Source: Escherichia phage vB_EcoM_SA35RD
Sequence record: OL960577.1
DNA: 64,000 nucleotides
Direction: 5' to 3' (one strand)
Position numbers and translations under genes: made by a program
Notes under the pieces: model-generated
The model's database searches: none
What the model saw: the letters and a program-made list of their open reading frames with translations, nothing else
What the model was told of the DNA's origin: nothing
In this document: one piece after another, positions 2,895 through 58,300 of the stretch
Layout of the letters: each line of letters opens with the position of its first letter
Position numbering within the stretch: the stretch's first letter is position 1

Positions 2895-5211
<2,317 letters not shown>

Positions 5212-50923: not shown

Positions 50924-51327
50924 TACTTTTTAAAAGTTTTTTGCAAAAGTTTGATGATTTCGTCGACGTTGGTTTCATCTACGATACAATGGATTTTTGT
51001 TACACCTAAAGTTATACCTTCGTTAGTAGGTTGAGGCTTTACTAAATCTACCTCAGTAAAGTACTCAATAAAGTATTTGAACTCGTCAGGATAAATCTCA
51101 AAATAAGTTTCAATTTCACCACCGGCAGAACATACAGTACCATCTTCCATAGTTACACTTACTACGTTTGACGTATCGCTATCATAATCAGGTTCCATTC
51201 CGTTTACAACAAAACTAGGCCCGTGGAGTTCAATCAATTTTAACATCTTAGCGTTATTATGTGGTGCTTCTTGAACAAAGTCGTCTTTAAATAAAGGGTT
51301 AATGATATAAGATTTTCCGATTTCCAT
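50923..51327 (-). CDS. hypothetical protein (frd.x region)
   Basis: 134 aa ORF with GAGGAAA SD behind an early promoter. Confidence 0.5.
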   Translation of the reverse strand: MEIGKSYIINPLFKDDFVQEAPHNNAKMLKLIELHGPSFVVNGMEPDYDSDTSNVVSVTMEDGTVCSAGGEIETYFEIYPDEFKYFIEYFTEVDLVKPQPTNEGITLGVTKIHCIVDETNVDEIIKLLQKTFKK

Positions 51328-51356
51328 TTTGATTTCCTCATGTTGTTGATAGGTCT

Positions 51357-51385
51357 ATATTAACACATCTAGGGAAGAAGTAAAC
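51357..51385 (-). promoter_or_regulatory. early promoter upstream of ORF 50923..51327
   Basis: Minus strand GTTTAC-17 nt-TAATAT, then caacaacatGAGGAAAtcaaa-ATG. Confidence 0.55.
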
Positions 51386-51412
51386 AACTTTTTCGGCAAT
51401 TTACAGATACTC

Positions 51413-51434
51413 AAAAGGGAGACCGAAGTCTCCC
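51413..51434 (-). terminator. terminator after gene 32
   Basis: GGGAGAC-CGAA-GTCTCCC; on the minus strand followed by TTTTGAG, 7 nt past the gene 32 stop. Confidence 0.65.
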
Positions 51435-51440
51435 GATTTA

Positions 51441-52343
51441 TTATAGACCAGCTAACAGGTCATCGAGGTCGCCATCATCTGAAGATGAGGTAGAGCTCAT
51501 GAAGTCATCTTCAGTTTTTGCAGAACTAAAGGCTTCCATGTCTTTATCAAAATCGTCAAGGTCAGAAGCAACTTTATCTGCAACAGAAGCTGCGGCAGCT
51601 GCTGCACCACCAAGAGCAGCAGTACCAAGAACCTTAGCGAAAGATTCATTTAATTTTTCAAAGGATTTGAACTGGTCTTTAGCCGTCAAAGTAGTAAGGT
51701 CTACCATCTGATCATATAGTTCTTTCTGGAATGCTTCGTCATTAATACGAGGAATTTCAGATTGACCTAAGAATTTAGATTCATCGTAGTTGCTAAAACC
51801 GGAAACCTGCTTAGCTTTCAGAACGAAGTTAGCACCTTCAAACGGACAAGTAACATCAACTGGAGTTTCACCCATTTCGGTATCAACAGCAATCATTGCA
51901 TTGATTTTGTCCCAAATCTTTTTACCGAAACGATATTTAAATACTTTACCTTCGTTATCTGGAGCTTGAGGGTCTTTAACAACCAGAATATTAGCCCAAT
52001 AAGAAGTTTTACGTTTCAGTTGAGAATATTCAGTTTTGTTGGTATTGTACAGGTCATTTTTACTAATGTACTGACATACAGGACAAGAGTCGTAATCACC
52101 ATGTGTAGAAGAGCAATTTTCAATATACCATTTACCATTTTTCTTGAAACCGTGGTTAACAAGAATTGCAAATGGTAGTGCATCATCAGTTTTTGCTGGC
52201 AAGAAACGAATTACCGCTTGACCATTACCTGATGCATCTAGCTTCAGCTTCCATTCGCCTTTATCTTCTGAAGAGAAACCTTTGTTACCGTTCAGTTTAG
52301 CCATTTGAGCAGCGAGGTCAGCAGTAGATTTACGTTTAAACAT
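51441..52343 (-). CDS. 32: single-stranded DNA-binding protein gp32
   Basis: 300 aa; N-terminus [23 protein letters not shown] and acidic C-terminal tail as T4 gp32. Confidence 0.95.
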
Positions 52344-52384
52344 TATATTTACCTTTATTTAGATTATTTAATTTATTTACAGTT

Positions 52385-52415
52385 GGTTGCTACGACACTT
52401 ATACCTCGTAGCTGG
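52385..52415 (-). promoter_or_regulatory. gene 32 leader structure (candidate autoregulatory translational operator)
   Basis: Inverted repeat GCTACG (52388-52393) / CGTAGC (52407-52412) in the gene 32 leader, followed by an A/T-rich tract to the start codon. Confidence 0.45.
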
Positions 52416-52422
52416 TATAATT

Positions 52423-52430
52423 TATTTATA
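52423..52430 (-). promoter_or_regulatory. late promoter motif (minus strand) for gene 32
   Basis: TATAAATA on minus strand about 80 nt before the gene 32 ATG, leaving a long leader. Confidence 0.5.
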
Positions 52431-52459
52431 AAGTAATTTTAACACACAAGAAATAAAGC

Positions 52460-53113
52460 TTAATACTTACATGATTTGATTGTTTCTATGAACAATTTCT
52501 TAGCAACATTTCCATCGATTTGAAGTATTTTTCGATATGCCTTTAATTTGGTAGAATAATTTTGCCAGACTAAGTTATCGGTGAGTTCGTCGTGCTTATC
52601 TATAATATTCAAAAATGAGTCCAACAATAAGAAAGTTTCAAACGAAATTATATTGCTTTGTAGCAATTTAAATATGTAGCTCGACTGAACGTTGTTATTA
52701 TAATCAAATATCTCTTGAAGCGCACTAACTTCAACTTTCTTACTGAAATAGTAGATGTTACGTACGTCTTCAGCAAACGTCTCTTTAGCTTGTTTGAGAC
52801 GTCCAATATATTCCCTATAGAAAACTAATGCATCAGCGTCTGATATCTCACCAATCCATGCGTCTTGGTTAGCAACTAAGTTGCTTATGAATATCAAGGT
52901 GAGTTCCTTCAATTTATATTTCTCTGCTAGTTTTTCAAAGAAATATTTATCTCGGCGTTTTTGATACGCATTATCCGAAACACGCATGCACCAGTTATAT
53001 TTGATTACGTCATACCGACCACCAAAGTGGTTTTTGCACATCAAGTATAGTTTATATACTGATTTACCATTAATATAACGTTCTCCATCAGGAGGCATGC
53101 GTATTTTAATCAT
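52460..53113 (-). CDS. 59: helicase loader gp59
   Basis: 217 aa; near-identical to recalled T4 gp59 throughout. Confidence 0.95.
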   Translation of the reverse strand: MIKIRMPPDGERYINGKSVYKLYLMCKNHFGGRYDVIKYNWCMRVSDNAYQKRRDKYFFEKLAEKYKLKELTLIFISNLVANQDAWIGEISDADALVFYREYIGRLKQAKETFAEDVRNIYYFSKKVEVSALQEIFDYNNNVQSSYIFKLLQSNIISFETFLLLDSFLNIIDKHDELTDNLVWQNYSTKLKAYRKILQIDGNVAKKLFIETIKSCKY

Positions 53114-53789
53114 AGTTCCATCCAGGCCATTTTGAAGATTTAAGTCTATATGTAACTAAAGACGCAGAAATATTAAAAACATTTGAAACTTCTTTACACG
53201 AGGCGTATTTTATACCATCAATAATTATAGGTTTTTGTTTTTTAATAGTTCTTTCTTTAGAATGCGGCTTTGAATTTGCTATTCTAAGAGCTTCTTTGGT
53301 TGAATCAGGCATCGGCTTATTCGTTTTTCGCCCTTTTCGGACTTTACTCAAGGCCAATTTGTGAGCTTCAGATAGTTTCTTACCCTTATTAGGTGACGGT
53401 ATTTTTCTTTCTAGTCTTGTTTTAGATACTTTAGCCTTAGTCTCTTCAGATCTAGGTTTACCTAATTTAGAAAGTGAAATAGACCTTTTAGCTTCATCAC
53501 TTTGTTTTTTACCAGGACCACCTTTACCACCGGGAACTAAGTTATAAGTATCATCTCGCAAAACAAAATCTTCATTAACCAATTCTGCTTCTTTTTTATA
53601 GGCGTCCTTGTCATTATCATATTCATAAAGAATTTCGGTATAAAAATTTTTTAGTCCATATTTAGCTTTGGCCGCTAATATAGCGCGGCCTGATCCAATA
53701 TACCAATCTTTCTCTTTATGTTTTTTGTGTACGCCTATATAAATTTTACCATTTATTTTATTGGTAGTTTTATACACAACGTATTTCAT
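53106..53789 (-). CDS. GIY-YIG homing endonuclease (Seg-like, free-standing)
   Basis: 227 aa; N-terminal GIY-YIG module (KIYIGVHKK...WYIGSG, NLVPGG); Lys/Arg-rich linker; overlaps gene 59 start and gene 33 stop. Confidence 0.8.
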   Translation of the reverse strand: MKYVVYKTTNKINGKIYIGVHKKHKEKDWYIGSGRAILAAKAKYGLKNFYTEILYEYDNDKDAYKKEAELVNEDFVLRDDTYNLVPGGKGGPGKKQSDEAKRSISLSKLGKPRSEETKAKVSKTRLERKIPSPNKGKKLSEAHKLALSKVRKGRKTNKPMPDSTKEALRIANSKPHSKERTIKKQKPIIIDGIKYASCKEVSNVFNISASLVTYRLKSSKWPGWNYD

Positions 53790-54124
53790 AATAAGAAATC
53801 TAACGTATTAGTTTTTTCACCACGAGCAACTGATGGGCGAAGCATGTTTTCGTCAATTGCTTCGCTTGTAATTTTTTCAACAATTCCTGTAGGAATAAAT
53901 TTAGCAAATTGTGTTTCTGGAATAGAATTTTCTTCCAAGAAAGCAGTTGTTGCTTCTAAATAAGACATACCAAATTGTTCAACCATGGATTCGATAATGA
54001 ATCCGTTTTCTTGTCGGTCAAGTAATTTAGCGATATCATCTTTATCGTGTTTTACTGCTAATTCTTGTTCAGATAAACCGGCCTCATCAACCGGTTTAAT
54101 ATCACTTAGTGAAAACTGTGTCAT
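53786..54124 (-). CDS. 33: late transcription accessory protein gp33
   Basis: 112 aa, T4 gp33 size and position. Confidence 0.9.
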   Translation of the reverse strand: MTQFSLSDIKPVDEAGLSEQELAVKHDKDDIAKLLDRQENGFIIESMVEQFGMSYLEATTAFLEENSIPETQFAKFIPTGIVEKITSEAIDENMLRPSVARGEKTNTLDFLL

Positions 54125-54371
54125 AAAGCTCGACTACCTCTTCGTTTTCAGCTTCAAATTGATCACGAGCGTCTTTATGATAAAGAGCTAACAAACGATT
54201 AAACATTTTTCCATCGACGCCAAGCTCTTCTTTAGCACGAGTACGAATGTCTTTAATCAGTTCATTATAACCAGAAATTTTAAGTTTGTTATCGGAAGCT
54301 TCCTTGACTAGTTTAGCCAGTTCTTCACCATGCACATCTTGATTAAATTCAACTGCTTCTTTCTTAGCCAT
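54102..54371 (-). CDS. dsbA: double-stranded DNA-binding protein DsbA
   Basis: Start set at ATG 54371 (MAKKEAVEF..., GAGGT SD), giving 89 aa as T4 DsbA; track ORF starts at 54389. Confidence 0.85.
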   Translation of the reverse strand: MAKKEAVEFNQDVHGEELAKLVKEASDNKLKISGYNELIKDIRTRAKEELGVDGKMFNRLLALYHKDARDQFEAENEEVVELYDTVFTK

Positions 54372-54378
54372 GTTTACC

Positions 54379-55296
54379 TCAGAATTCATTAATTACACTT
54401 GTTAATTTAGAAAGACCGGATTTTACAAAGTATGAATAAATCTTGCCTTTAGGTTGTTGTTTATACGAGTTATAATACTCTATAATGGTTGAAGCAATAT
54501 TATCAGGGATATAATCAAAATCAATGAGAACCAAATTTTCTTGATACCGTTTATATTCTTCTGCACTTAATAATACTTCAGCTTGAGAACGGTCGTTAGC
54601 AATTGCTTCAATAATTGATGTTTTCATGCTTGGAGTTCGTTCACCTTCAACTCGAGTAAACCAGAAGTCACCACGAACTCGAACAGATGCAACACCATCC
54701 TTACGGTCACCTTTAAGAATTTTAGTCATGCAATCAATTTCAGCAGAACCGTTCTTAATTTTAACCCATTTTTTCTGTGGTGGCGACCACTGTTTAACGT
54801 TAGGATATTTGTGTAATTGTGTAAAGTCACCATCTGATGCAACAATACATACCTTATGTCCAGCTAATGACAAATATTTAGTTAATACACCGATATGGTC
54901 ATCCGCTTCATACTTGTCAATATCCATTACAACGTATGGCATGTATTTCTTAATCTCATCAACAACTTGATGGAGTGCAGTAAAATATCCTTCCCAATCC
55001 CACTTTGAAGCTTCACGATCGGTTTTACGATTTTTCTTGTAATAGTAAGCAAAATCACGTCGCCAATAACCTGAAGTAGCATTATCCATACACAATACAA
55101 ATTTTGTATAGCCTTGCTTACGGAACAACACGACGTTTTTACGAATTGAATTCAAGATTACATGGCGAACCATTGGAACAGTAATTTTATCACCGTCTTC
55201 AAAGTTGTTTAATGCGGCTGCCAACGCAATGTTACTAAAGTCGGCAAGTGCAATACCTTCTTTGTAATCTTCATCCAACATCATTTCTAAATCCAT
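54379..55296 (-). CDS. rnh: RNase H (5'-3' exonuclease, FEN family)
   Basis: 305 aa at the T4 rnh position upstream of gene 34; early promoter upstream. Confidence 0.9.
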   Translation of the reverse strand: MDLEMMLDEDYKEGIALADFSNIALAAALNNFEDGDKITVPMVRHVILNSIRKNVVLFRKQGYTKFVLCMDNATSGYWRRDFAYYYKKNRKTDREASKWDWEGYFTALHQVVDEIKKYMPYVVMDIDKYEADDHIGVLTKYLSLAGHKVCIVASDGDFTQLHKYPNVKQWSPPQKKWVKIKNGSAEIDCMTKILKGDRKDGVASVRVRGDFWFTRVEGERTPSMKTSIIEAIANDRSQAEVLLSAEEYKRYQENLVLIDFDYIPDNIASTIIEYYNSYKQQPKGKIYSYFVKSGLSKLTSVINEF

Positions 55297-55328
55297 ATGA
55301 ACCTCTTGTTCAGTTAGTCAACTTGTCT

Positions 55329-55358
55329 ATAGTAACACACTCATTTGAAAGCGTAAAC
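55329..55358 (-). promoter_or_regulatory. early promoter upstream of rnh
   Basis: Minus strand GTTTAC-18 nt-TACTAT, back-to-back with the gene 34 late promoter. Confidence 0.55.
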
Positions 55359-55362
55359 TGGT

Positions 55363-55370
55363 ATAAATAA
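55363..55370 (+). promoter_or_regulatory. late promoter motif TATAAATA upstream of gene 34
   Basis: Exact motif 30 nt before the gene 34 ATG. Confidence 0.6.
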
Positions 55371-55399
55371 GTATTATTGAAACAATAAAGGAAAAACGA

Positions 55400-58300
55400 A
55401 TGGCCGACATCAAACGTAAGTTCAGAGCCGAAGACGGTCTGGACGCCGGTGGCGACAAGATTGTTAACGTAGCATTAGCCGACCGTACAGTAGGTACTGA
55501 TGGCGTAAACGTTGACTTCCTGGTACAAGAAAACACCGTTCAAGTATATGATTCTACGCGTGGATATAACAAAGGATTTGTTGTTCTTTATGACAACCGT
55601 TTATATCAAGCAATAAATGATATCGTGTCTCCTTCCGGGGCATTTAACCTTTTACAATGGCGTGCAGTTCGTACCGATGCACAATGGATAACTGTAGCTT
55701 CTGGGACTTATCAACTTTCTTCAGGTGAATCGATTTCGGTTAACACTGGTGCCGGCAATGATATGGTTTTCACGTTGCCAAATGCGCCGGTTGATGGTGA
55801 CACTATTGTTTTGGCTGATATTGGTGGAAGAACCGGGGCGGTTAAAGTACAGATTAACGCGTCTGTGCAGAGTATTTTAAACTTTAGAGGCGAACAAGTT
55901 CGTACAGTTTTAATGACGCGTCCGCGTTCACAACTAGTGTTTGTGTTTAGTAATCGTTTGTGGCAGATGTATATCATTGATTACGGTAAAGAATCAATCA
56001 CTGTTACACCTGCTACACCATATCAAGCGCAAGCAAACGATTTTATTGTTCTTCGTTTTACTAGTGCAGCACCAATCAACATTACACTTCCACGTAATGC
56101 TAACAATGGTGATATAATCAGCCTAGTTGATTTAGATAAATTAAACCCACTGTATCATACGATTATTAAAACATTTGATGATACAACGTCTATTGGCGAA
56201 GTCGGGACTCATATCGTCGAAGGTAGAACTTCTTCTGACGCGTTTTTTGTTTTTGATGCTGCAAATAGTTTATGGCGTATATGGGAAGGCGACCAGAAAT
56301 CACGTCTTCGTATTATCCGTACAGATTCAAATATTCGCCCAAATGAAGAAGTTCTTATTTTTGGTACAAATAACGCTACAGCAGAAACTATTAACCTTAC
56401 GCTTCCTACAGGAATTTTGACCGGTGACACTGTTAAAATTTCAATGAACTACATGCGTAAAGGCCAAACAGTAAAAATTAAAGCTGCCGAAGGTGATACA
56501 ATTGCTTCTTCTGTTGCATTGCTTCAGTTCCCTAAACGTTCTGAATATCCACCTGATGCTCAATGGGTTTCTGTTACTGAATTGGAATTCAATGGTACTA
56601 ATTCATATGTTCCTGTATTAGAATTAGCATATATTGAAGACACCGTTGCTGGTACACGTTATTGGGTTGTGCAACAGAATGTCCCTACAGTAGAACGTGT
56701 TGATGCTGGAACTGATGCTACACGAGCTCGTTTAGGTGTTATTGCTCTTGCTACTCAAGCGCAAGCAAATGTTGATTTAGAGAATACTCCAGCTAAAGAA
56801 GTTGCTATTACTCCTGAAACGTTGGCAAATCGTACAGCAACTGAATCTCGACGTGGTATCGCTAAAATTGCTACAACGGCACAAGTTAATCAGAATTCCA
56901 CAGCAGAATTTGTGGACGATACTATTGTTACGCCTAAAAAACTAAATGAGCGTACAGCAACTGAAACTCGTCGCGGTCTTGCTGAAATTGCTACTCAGAC
57001 TGAAACCGATGCTGGTCTTGATGACACAACGATTATTACACCTAAGAAATTGCAGGCACGTCAGGGTTCTGAAACACTATCGGGTATAGTTAAATATGTA
57101 TCAACTACTTCTGCTACTCCTGCTGAAACTCGTGGGGCCGCAGGCACTAACGTTTATAATAAAACCGTAAATAATTTAACTATTTCTCCTAAAGCCCTTG
57201 ACCAATATAAGGCAACTTATGCACAACAAGGTGCAGTAATTTTAGCTGTTGATAGTGAAGTAATTGCTGGTCAATCACAAGCAGGTTATTCTCACGCTGT
57301 AGTAACTCCTGAAACACTGCATAAGAAAACTTCTACTGATGGGCGTATTGGTTTAATTGAAATTGCTACGCAAACAGAAACTAATGCTGGGACTGATTAT
57401 ACGCGGGCAGTAACGCCTAAGACGTTAAATGATAGGAAAGCTACGGAAGGATTATCCGGCATAGCCGAACTTGCTACGCAAGTTGAATTTGATACTGGAA
57501 CTGATGATACTCGTATCTCGACTCCACTGAAAATTAAAACTCATTTTGATTCTTCTGACCGTACCAGTGTTAATTCTGATTCCGGACTTATTGAAGAAGG
57601 AACCTTGTGGAACCATTATACTCTTGATATTTCTAAAGCAAATGAAACACAACGTGGTACACTTCGCGTAGCGACTCAGGCAGAATCTAATGCAGGAACT
57701 TTAGATGATGTTCTTATTACTCCTAAAAAGCTTTTAGGGACTAAGTCCACTGAAACGTCTGAAGGTGTAATTAAGGTTGCTACTCGGGCTGAAACTGTAA
57801 CAGGAACTTCTGCTAATACTGCTGTATCGCCTAAGAATTTAAAATGGATTGTCCAGAATGAACCAACATGGGCTGCTACTACGGCAATTCGTGGATTCGT
57901 TAAAACTTCATCCGGTTCTATTACATTCGTTGGTAATGATACAGTTGGTTCAACACAACCTTTAGAATCATATGAAAAAAATAGCTATGCTATATCTCCA
58001 TATGAATTAAACCGTGTACTTGCTAACTATTTGCCATTAAAAGCAAAAGCTGCTGACGCAAATTTATTAGATGGCATAGATTCATCTCAGTTCATTCGTA
58101 GGGATATTGCACAGACGGTTAATGGTTCACTAACCTTAACGAAACAAACTAATCTGAGTGCCCCTCTTGTATCATCTAGTACTGCTACGTTTGGTGGGTC
58201 AGTTTCGGCAAATAGTACATTAACTATTTCTAATACTGAAACGGCAACTCGTCTGATTTTTGAGAAAGGACCTCAAACTGGAACTAATCCAGCACAGACG

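Follow-up and report, generated by a model that had tools for sequence, protein, structure and literature searches.

The window considered here is a stretch of 64,000 nucleotides from Escherichia phage vB_EcoM_SA35RD (OL960577.1), which by its sequence belongs to Mosigvirus, the RB69-like T-even phages. On the minus strand of the window, the genes for a late-transcription co-activator (gene 33, upstream; 53786..54124, 112 aa; Pfam Trans_coact, E 3.5e-26) and a helicase loader (gene 59, downstream; 52460..53113, 217 aa; Pfam T4_Gp59_N, E 1e-49, and T4_Gp59_C, E 1e-44) are separated by an open reading frame (ORF) of 227 codons that starts with ATG (53106..53789, minus strand; ORF list and sequence) and encodes a Seg-like GIY-YIG protein. 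Genes 33 and 59 are essential. The identification of this homing endonuclease gene (HEG) draws on the ORF, on matches to TIGR01453 and PHROG 314, on presence and absence among relatives and on the ratio of nonsynonymous to synonymous diversity (pN/pS). The HEG is an uncharacterised member of the Seg family with a conserved landing site of its own, the 33/59 site, and is of an ordinary element class; gene 59 is its predicted target.

The HEG overlaps both neighbors, as the initial annotation had read directly from the letters. The HEG ATG (53789-53787) shares the tetranucleotide ATGA with the TGA of gene 33, giving an overlap of 4 nt, while the ATG of gene 59 lies inside the final HEG codons (AAC TAT GAT TAA), giving an overlap of 8 nt in which the HEG stop TAA (53108-53106) falls within gene 59 codons 2-3. 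Alignment to the HEG-less phage NRG-P0074, where the empty site reads ...GATTTCTTATTATGATTAAAATACGC... and the gene 33 TGA overlaps the gene 59 ATG, defines the insertion point precisely: the insert is 676 bp, flanked by a 5-bp direct repeat, TATGA. At the left junction (53786..53790, minus strand), the HEG starts on what is the gene 59 start codon in HEG-less relatives. At the right junction (53106..53114, minus strand), the last HEG codons contain the other TATGA copy (53114-53110), which provides a new ATG for gene 59; thus, gene 59 retains a start codon. An exact return to the empty site would follow from recombination between the two TATGA copies. Orthologues from Dhakavirus and Winklervirus have a longer duplication, ATGAT(T/A)A, and the HEG proteins of these genera therefore begin MIK..., as does gp59. 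The left side of the insertion site is formed by the gene 33 C-terminal codons (...TLDFLL*), which are kept across genera, and the first ~25 nt of gene 59 on the other side are a local peak of conservation across T-even genera (1.4 bits per position vs ~0.5 upstream). The ATGA overlap of genes 33 and 59 at the empty site is taken as ancestral and is also found in T4 (RefSeq) and most other T-even genera. In T4 nothing lies between the two genes, and segG lies between genes 32 and 59 (T4 RefSeq annotation; PMC2988022); the initial annotation placed segG correctly, and the insertion site in the window differs from all seg sites of T4, as had been suspected.

Certain public records (e.g., WFbE185 and 348Ecol098PP) give the gene the product name 'group I intron endonuclease', which is also the title of the best NCBIfam model of the protein, TIGR01453 (grpIintron_endo, I-TevI subfamily; 73.9 bits vs a cutoff of 56, residues 4-224). 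The probability that the HEG is intron-encoded is close to nil, as both flanking genes are complete, are translated separately and overlap the HEG, the 33/59 overlap of HEG-less relatives is intact and nothing besides the HEG is absent there, and no Rfam family, group I introns included, matches 51300-55500 in a cmscan at E<=1. The intron-encoded endonuclease is rejected on these grounds, and the gene is free-standing, as first described.

The protein also matches the homing endonucleases of PHROG 314 (E 6.6e-56) and is composed of three parts. The N-terminal GIY-YIG catalytic domain (residues 1-92; 53514..53789, minus strand) is identified by alignment to SegA-G and I-TevI and by hhalign. The basic linker (residues 93-182; 53244..53513, minus strand) is 31% Lys+Arg and is laid out as about four NUMOD3-like repeats, as judged from composition, repeat layout and a weak Pfam NUMOD3 match (residues 93-122, 18 bits, below the cutoff of 20.4). 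The C-terminal I-TevI-type helix-turn-helix DNA-binding domain (residues 183-226; 53112..53243, minus strand) is recognized by Pfam I-TevI_DNA-bd (PF20987; E 8.3e-12, 45.3 bits vs a cutoff of 27, residues 183-226) and by phmmer, in which the sole solved-structure match is the I-TevI DNA-binding domain (1i3j/1t2t) with the common motif LVTYR-KS-KW. The Cys-rich zinc-finger segment of I-TevI aligns to a gap, and the whole HEG protein has one cysteine (C198). Thus, the Seg architecture first claimed from the letters, a GIY-YIG module followed by a Lys/Arg-rich linker and a C-terminal DNA-binding region, is supported by Pfam, TIGR01453, PHROG, phmmer and alignment with the T4 proteins.

The initial annotation recognized the catalytic module by IYIG...YIGSG and NLVPGG. 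The module itself stands, as does NLVPGG, the asparagine of which (N83) corresponds to N90 of I-TevI, while the assignment of the motifs does not: VVY (residues 4-6) serves as the 'GIY' element and IYIG (residues 16-19) as the 'YIG' element, and YIGSG (residues 30-34) is a separate motif that is invariant in the SegA-E clade. All residues invariant in this clade are present in the HEG (Y6, T9, N10, Y17, G19, H21, D28, Y30, GSG32-34, K43, E67, Y82-N83 and G87-G88) and are also kept in the 50-56% diverged orthologues of other genera. In an hhalign comparison with the I-TevI catalytic domain (probability 86.5%), Y6, Y17 and N83 of the HEG align with Y6, Y17 and N90 of I-TevI. E67 is invariant in the Seg clade and its column is near-invariant with I-TevI in the MAFFT alignment; hhalign places it one residue off E75 of I-TevI, so that the exact register is uncertain. 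Based on alignment with the sequences of the T4 RefSeq record, the HEG protein is 42% identical to SegD, 38% to SegC, 36% to SegA, 34% to SegB, 33% to SegE, 30% to I-TevI and 22% each to SegF and SegG. The catalytic residues that are invariant in the experimentally active SegA-E clade are unmutated, and the HEG appears to have every feature of Seg membership that can be assessed in silico.

Among the phage records, a 2-kb query around the HEG has 172 matches, nearly all Mosigvirus. Of these, 27 cover the query in full at 96.8-99.3% identity, the closest being those of the AV109/AV114 group; other close relatives, about 145 records, cover 66% of the query, all but the HEG, and across the searches made ~125-145 records are without it. 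The HEG is, thus, not universal at this position, and its presence varies among Mosigvirus genomes that are otherwise 97-99% identical. Phages with the HEG are spread over the Mosigvirus species mar005p1, 25307, shsm521, utam and JS09; phages RB69, JS09, HX01 and mar005P1 themselves are neither among the 27 records with a copy of >=96% nor among the 2-kb matches listed. The gene is already annotated in public records as 'homing endonuclease', 'putative Seg-like homing DNA endonuclease' or 'group I intron endonuclease' and is, therefore, no new gene discovery. Two Mosigvirus samples were compared for their flanks, 11 loci with the HEG (HEG+) and eight without it (HEG-), the latter chosen for similarity to the window, which biases a test for a flank clade. 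A clade of HEG+ phages in the flanks was rejected, as nearest neighbors are mixed and the distance between the groups is about the diversity within them.

The reading frame is well preserved. The ORF is intact in 10 of the 11 sampled HEG+ loci, and a full-length, single-piece tblastn match is found in 26 of the 27 records. In phage AV116 (L027), a +1 insertion at the window equivalent of ~53481 causes a frameshift that ends the protein near residue 107; the sole annotation here is a 138-aa 'hypothetical protein', and the extra base reflects incipient decay of the HEG or else an error in sequencing. Across the 10 intact copies, pS is 0.110 and pN 0.012, for a pN/pS of 0.11 (catalytic domain, 0.08; DNA-binding part, 0.13), which is indicative of purifying selection on the encoded protein. 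The pS of the neighbors is similar (gp59, 0.114; rnh, 0.101), and the HEG appears to have been in the Mosigvirus gene pool for about as long as the neighboring alleles.

Orthologues of the HEG were surveyed by tblastn of the protein against all phage records. In addition to the 27 Mosigvirus records (96-100% amino acid identity, 33/59 site), the survey finds the Dhakavirus phages AnYang, IME540 and LQ5 (56%), the Winklervirus phages CHI14, CBH8 and Kc304 (52%) and LC53 (50%), all of which have a match that overlaps the annotated gene 33, and Enterobacter phage KMB20 (47%), placed by its overlap with an annotated 'transcriptional regulator'. The 33/59 context is confirmed for LQ5 (the Dhakavirus genome in which the context was inspected), CHI14 and LC53. 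A sharp break in identity separates this group (47-100%) from all remaining tblastn matches, which are <=38% identical and reside at other loci (e.g., the SegD-like genes at the 23/24 site). Thus, based on sequence and position, the HEG forms an orthologous group of its own tied to the 33/59 site. The distribution is patchy in each genus. Four Dhakavirus records cover >=80% of the query and represent three phages (AnYang twice, as RefSeq and GenBank entries), while most Dhakavirus records are without the HEG (e.g., Bp7, MX01 and IME08). In Winklervirus, five records have it and five do not (Gravdalen, Vettismorki, X20 twice and Virsaitis27), and the LC53 genome paper notes the gene (gp244) in LC53 and Kc304 and its absence from Virsaitis27 (PMC10132071). 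Between genera, the HEG is 50-56% identical, compared to 56-60% for gp33, 55% for rnh and 77% for gp59; old vertical descent with many losses and occasional inter-genus transfer would fit the HEG identities equally. A pattern search of IMG/VR, built on a three-orthologue alignment (NGKIYIG, KW..W.Y), drew generic GIY-YIG genes from unrelated phages; site occupancy was instead judged by tblastn against the annotated phage collection.

The flanks of the Mosigvirus loci are shuffled with respect to HEG status, except for 105 bp of gene 59 adjoining the insertion (11 HEG+ and eight HEG- loci). Five clustered single-nucleotide polymorphisms reside here (window positions 53022, 53023, 53030, 53032 and 53054, corresponding to gene 59 nt 60-92), and two gene 59 alleles are apparent: a window-type (..KNHFGG..) and an RB69-type (..KQHFNG..). 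A 48-mer search for each allele in the whole collection finds 96 RB69-type and 57 window-type records. The HEG+ records are window-type without exception (27/27), while the HEG-less records divide into 30/126 window-type and 96/126 RB69-type (Fisher p 1.8e-14, for records that are not independent). One patch type common to all HEG+ records, with flanks shuffled beyond ~100 bp, is a population-level counterpart of the co-conversion of flanking markers expected in mixed infection.

Allele comparisons in three genera delimit an HEG-linked, recoded patch at gene 59 nt 28-93 (53021..53086, minus strand). In Winklervirus, CHI14 (HEG+) and Gravdalen (HEG-) have no difference in gene 59 nt 1-27, 22 in nt 28-93 and none in nt 94-654. 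In Mosigvirus, the corresponding counts for the window (HEG+) and APCEc01 (HEG-) are 0, 9 and 4, and in Dhakavirus those for LQ5 (HEG+) and IME08 (HEG-) are 1, 11 and 32. Two HEG- phages of Dhakavirus, Bp7 and IME08, differ at 0, 12 and 27 positions; the patch is hypervariable in this genus. On the other side of the insertion, the last 90 nt of gene 33 have 0-1 differences between HEG+ and HEG- genomes in Winklervirus and 0-3 in Dhakavirus. The changed codons of the patch are mostly synonymous (5/7, 8/9, 11/12 and 9/13) and include a Ser AGT/TCT switch. The first 27 nt of gene 59 are nearly invariant across T-even genera; thus, the patch may be contiguous with the HEG.

This patch looks like a footprint of co-conversion or of target immunity. 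In the first case, it may be donor sequence that is obligatorily co-converted, with the break ~80-95 nt into gene 59; in the second, it may be the recognition or cleavage site itself, recoded so as to escape cutting. The two are compatible, and both would place the action of the predicted enzyme at the 5' end of gene 59. Import of the HEG+ patch from another sampled genus was rejected, as no convincing donor is found (the sequence closest to the patch of CHI14 is 12/66 nt away from it). The window-type GG at gp59 residues 31-32 (KNHFGG) is unique among the sampled genera, which makes a change in place, or a donor outside the sample, more likely than import from a known genus.

The HEG is proposed, at a probability of about 70%, to encode a functional, promoter-less and free-standing Seg/I-TevI-type homing endonuclease that cuts the genomes of HEG-less relatives in the 5' end of gene 59, with the patch co-converted. 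The gene would be transcribed within an rnh-dsbA-33-59 message (rnh, 54379..55296, and dsbA, 54102..54389, both minus strand; ORF list) and translated by termination-reinitiation coupled to gene 33, with the coupling handed on to gene 59. By homology of the domains, the protein would be anchored on DNA through its helix-turn-helix at the C-terminus and its basic NUMOD3-like linker, and the tethered GIY-YIG domain would make a double-strand break in co-infecting HEG-less relatives; the comparative footprints suggest that this break falls no more than ~100 bp into gene 59. With the HEG+ genome as the repair template, the HEG would then be copied along with the neighboring part of gene 59 (nt ~28-93), and HEG+ and some HEG-less genomes would carry a recoded, presumably uncut version of this segment.

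The absence of a dedicated promoter is apparent from the motif searches. The late promoter motif TATAAATA is not found in the HEG or just upstream of it; the closest copies precede gene 32 (52423-52430, minus strand) and gene 34 (55362-55369, plus strand). In the window as a whole, the motif occurs 18 times vs 7.0 +/- 2.1 expected. Sigma-70-like matches are at shuffle expectation (19 vs 15.3 +/- 4.7). The cassette is, thus, promoter-less, and the HEG is presumably translated through coupling to gene 33, as gene 59 is in genomes with an empty site. The T4 segC, segF and segG genes are likewise without promoters of their own (PMC2988022). A hairpin that pairs the UUAUUAUGA start region with UCGUGGUGA ~35 nt upstream in gene 33 (window 53786-53830; L001:2200-2250) occludes the HEG ATG in HEG+ genomes and the gene 59 ATG in HEG-less genomes. 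The UUAUUAUGA hairpin is not more stable than shuffled sequence (z -0.5 in HEG+ and -0.1 in HEG-less genomes), and sequestration of the start codon by RNA structure was dropped, as stability is at the shuffled level.

Several points weigh against a functional enzyme that homes into gene 59. With regard to the protein, activity is deduced from conservation; the Pfam SegE_GIY-YIG match (residues 5-81, 22.4 bits, E 1.6e-4) is slightly below the cutoff of 25; and Arg27 of I-TevI is without an alignable counterpart, as the segment FEKRWKRHF falls to a gap in both the alignment and hhalign. The last of these is no argument for inactivity because the active T4 SegA-E enzymes have the same gap (R35 of the HEG is not conserved in the clade). 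With regard to spread, HEG diversity (pi, nucleotide diversity, 0.032; pS 0.11) is as high as that of the flanking genes, so that a recent sweep is not indicated, and a gene held vertically for a long time and lost now and then would be distributed in much the same way. With regard to the footprint, the records are phylogenetically non-independent (RefSeq/GenBank duplicates and 13 LF82-n phages); the association of patch and HEG could be plain tight linkage over 60-90 bp; no motif common to the 'sensitive' patch alleles of the three genera was found; and the HEG-less Bp7 and IME08 differ at 12 patch positions, so that the patch is not exclusively a marker of HEG status. This Dhakavirus variation could be a trace of past occupancy or unrelated.

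Some of the same observations would suit a non-functional or decaying passenger, the relic of an old invasion held in place by linkage to the essential genes 33 and 59. The truncated copy of AV116, the diversity as old as the flanks with no recent sweep, the missing Arg27 equivalent and the harm expected from imprecise loss of a cassette that carries the gene 59 start context are all in line with such a relic. A relic is, nonetheless, improbable, as it would drift towards a pN/pS of 1 and gain stop codons, while the observed ratio remains near 0.1 in both the catalytic and DNA-binding parts, every SegA-E-clade invariant residue is kept even in orthologues diverged by 50-56%, and full-length matches are found in all records but one.

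The same enzyme may instead recognize the 33/59 junction itself (...GATTTCTTATTATGATTAAAATACGCATGCC...), as I-TevI does its insertion site, such that insertion splits the site and confers immunity and the patch is hitch-hiking or ordinary variation. The junction together with the first ~25 nt of gene 59 is the most conserved stretch of the region across T-even genera, encoding the gp33 C-terminus TLDFLL* and the gp59 N-terminus MIK(I/L)RMPP. No fixed difference between HEG+ and HEG- loci occurs within 26 bp of the insertion towards gene 59 or within 33 bp towards gene 33 in the Mosigvirus sample, the C-terminal domain is I-TevI-like, and the patch also varies between the HEG-less Bp7 and IME08. 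Recognition of the junction would, however, leave unexplained a 66-nt stretch that is 33% diverged, strictly by HEG status, between Winklervirus gene 59 alleles that are otherwise identical, as well as the restriction of divergence to the gene 59 side, and the T4 Segs mostly cut within a neighboring gene, away from the insertion site (PMC2988022). Recognition of the junction is, thus, considered unlikely, though it retains a sizeable share of the probability.

A stronger form of the proposed cleavage within gene 59 is an arms race over the target site, in which the 33/59 HEG lineage and gene 59 would have evolved in parallel in at least three T-even genera. The cut would fall in codons ~10-31 (the conserved segment NGKSVY-LYLM-K), HEG+ genomes would be synonymously recoded and uncuttable, and the 30 HEG-less window-type Mosigvirus records would be 'immune but empty', as either ex-carriers or escape variants. 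The cassette would also be semi-addictive, since it supplies the gene 59 start codon and coupling context and, therefore, only precise deletion removes it. This arms race is put forward tentatively, as possible but at less than even odds.

It is also conceivable that the nuclease is kept mainly for the benefit of the phage, by exclusion of HEG-less Mosigviruses (marker exclusion) or by tuning of gp59 dosage, with spread as a secondary effect. Long-term purifying selection without evidence of recent spread and the insertion into a coupled 33-59 translation unit agree with such a role, and T4 Seg enzymes cause exclusion of T2 markers (PMC2988022). A primary role of this kind is quite improbable, as the sequence offers no distinction from ordinary homing, exclusion is the same biochemical act, and most Mosigviruses manage without the HEG.

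Several further features of the region and its records stand apart from these questions. Gene 32 (51441..52343, minus strand; ORF list) lies only ~116 bp from gene 59 in the window and is strongly mosaic: the window gp32 is 100% identical over 278 aa to that of an HEG-less IMG/VR contig (L004) and only 93% identical to that of AV109, despite 99.3% nucleotide identity to the latter across 33-HEG-59. Nucleotide diversity is ~0.07-0.09 in the 3' half of gene 32 vs ~0.01-0.03 in genes 59, 33 and dsbA. In the 5' part of gene 34 (gene from 55400, plus strand, ORF list; part compared, 55400-57400, proximal long-tail-fibre), pi is 0.10 in the sampled HEG+ loci vs 0.024 in the HEG-less loci, a contrast that probably reflects exchange of tail-fibre alleles and the biased choice of HEG-less loci, not the HEG. 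The longest dsbA ORF is 95 aa (288 nt) and is annotated as such in several records, while others have a 270-nt version that starts 18 nt downstream; the dsbA start is, thus, called inconsistently across Mosigvirus records. Two records labelled Tequatrovirus, MZ501098 (PaulHMueller, L033) and NC_054913 (F2, L039), match the Mosigvirus locus at 97.5-98.7% nucleotide identity, and their genus labels look out of date or wrong.

The HEG changes no concept. It extends the catalogue of T-even homing endonucleases by one site-specific Seg lineage that has orthologues in four T-even lineages, and its footprint predicts a determinant of cleavage or immunity in gene 59 nt ~28-93, for which natural alleles exist as sensitive (RB69-type), immune-empty (NRG-P0074-type) and HEG+ forms. 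Elements of this type are a source of local marker exclusion and mosaicism in Mosigvirus, a genus widely used in phage-therapy and biocontrol collections. An enzyme with this I-TevI-like modular layout, if characterised, could serve as a nuclease scaffold.

Of the known systems, the closest is the clade of SegD and SegA/B/C/E, the clade-specific invariant residues of which are the same in the N-terminal domain of the HEG. SegD (42% identity) is the closest T4 paralogue. Like the members of this clade, the HEG is free-standing, belongs to a T-even phage and is found in some close relatives but not in others; it differs in position, as it occupies the 33/59 site while segD is found at 23/24 and the rest at other sites, and its C-terminal domain is more I-TevI-like than that of most Segs. 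With I-TevI, the HEG shares the GIY-YIG domain, the long linker and the C-terminal helix-turn-helix (matches to PF20987, TIGR01453 and 1i3j). By contrast to I-TevI, it is not intron-encoded, has NUMOD3-like repeats in place of the linker zinc finger, has a gap at the Arg27 segment and is only 30% identical. SegH of RB3/U5 is likewise of the GIY-YIG Seg type, and the Shf125875 record names the HEG 'SegH; similar to RB3 segH'. The SegH of phage F2, however, adjoins nrdG (the mobC position) and is only ~35% identical to the HEG; thus, the label reflects a best-hit name and not orthology.

T4 SegG (gene 32.1) resembles the HEG in being a free-standing GIY-YIG homing endonuclease of the same neighborhood encoded by a promoter-less cassette on an existing transcript, and it cuts the neighboring essential gene 32 (PMC2988022). 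It differs in site (59/32 in T4 RefSeq) and sequence (22% identity), and orthology of the two was rejected on both counts; SegG is an independent element. Phage LQ5 (L003:4328-5051) has homing endonuclease genes at both 33/59 and 59/32, the latter 35% identical to T4 SegG (L026:4910-5542), while Bp7 (L125:1567-1863) has only the SegG-like gene (59% identical) and IME08 has neither; two further loci (L006 and L013, ~3152-3842) are listed with the same observation. Gene 59 is, thus, bracketed by two independent landing sites, 33/59 and 59/32. The literature consulted describes no homing endonuclease gene at 33/59 beyond generic statements in genome announcements, and a T4 review names none of T4 at this site (PMC2988022). 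The targets of the T4 Segs include uvsX for segA, uvsW for segE, gene 56 for segF and gene 32 for segG (PMC2988022). Of these, SegF and gene 56 provide the nearest parallel to the predicted behavior of the HEG, in which the target would reside in the neighboring gene 59, no more than ~100 bp from the insertion, and a short stretch of flanking DNA would be carried along with the HEG. The two enzymes are only 22% identical, and the target of the HEG is predicted from comparative footprints.

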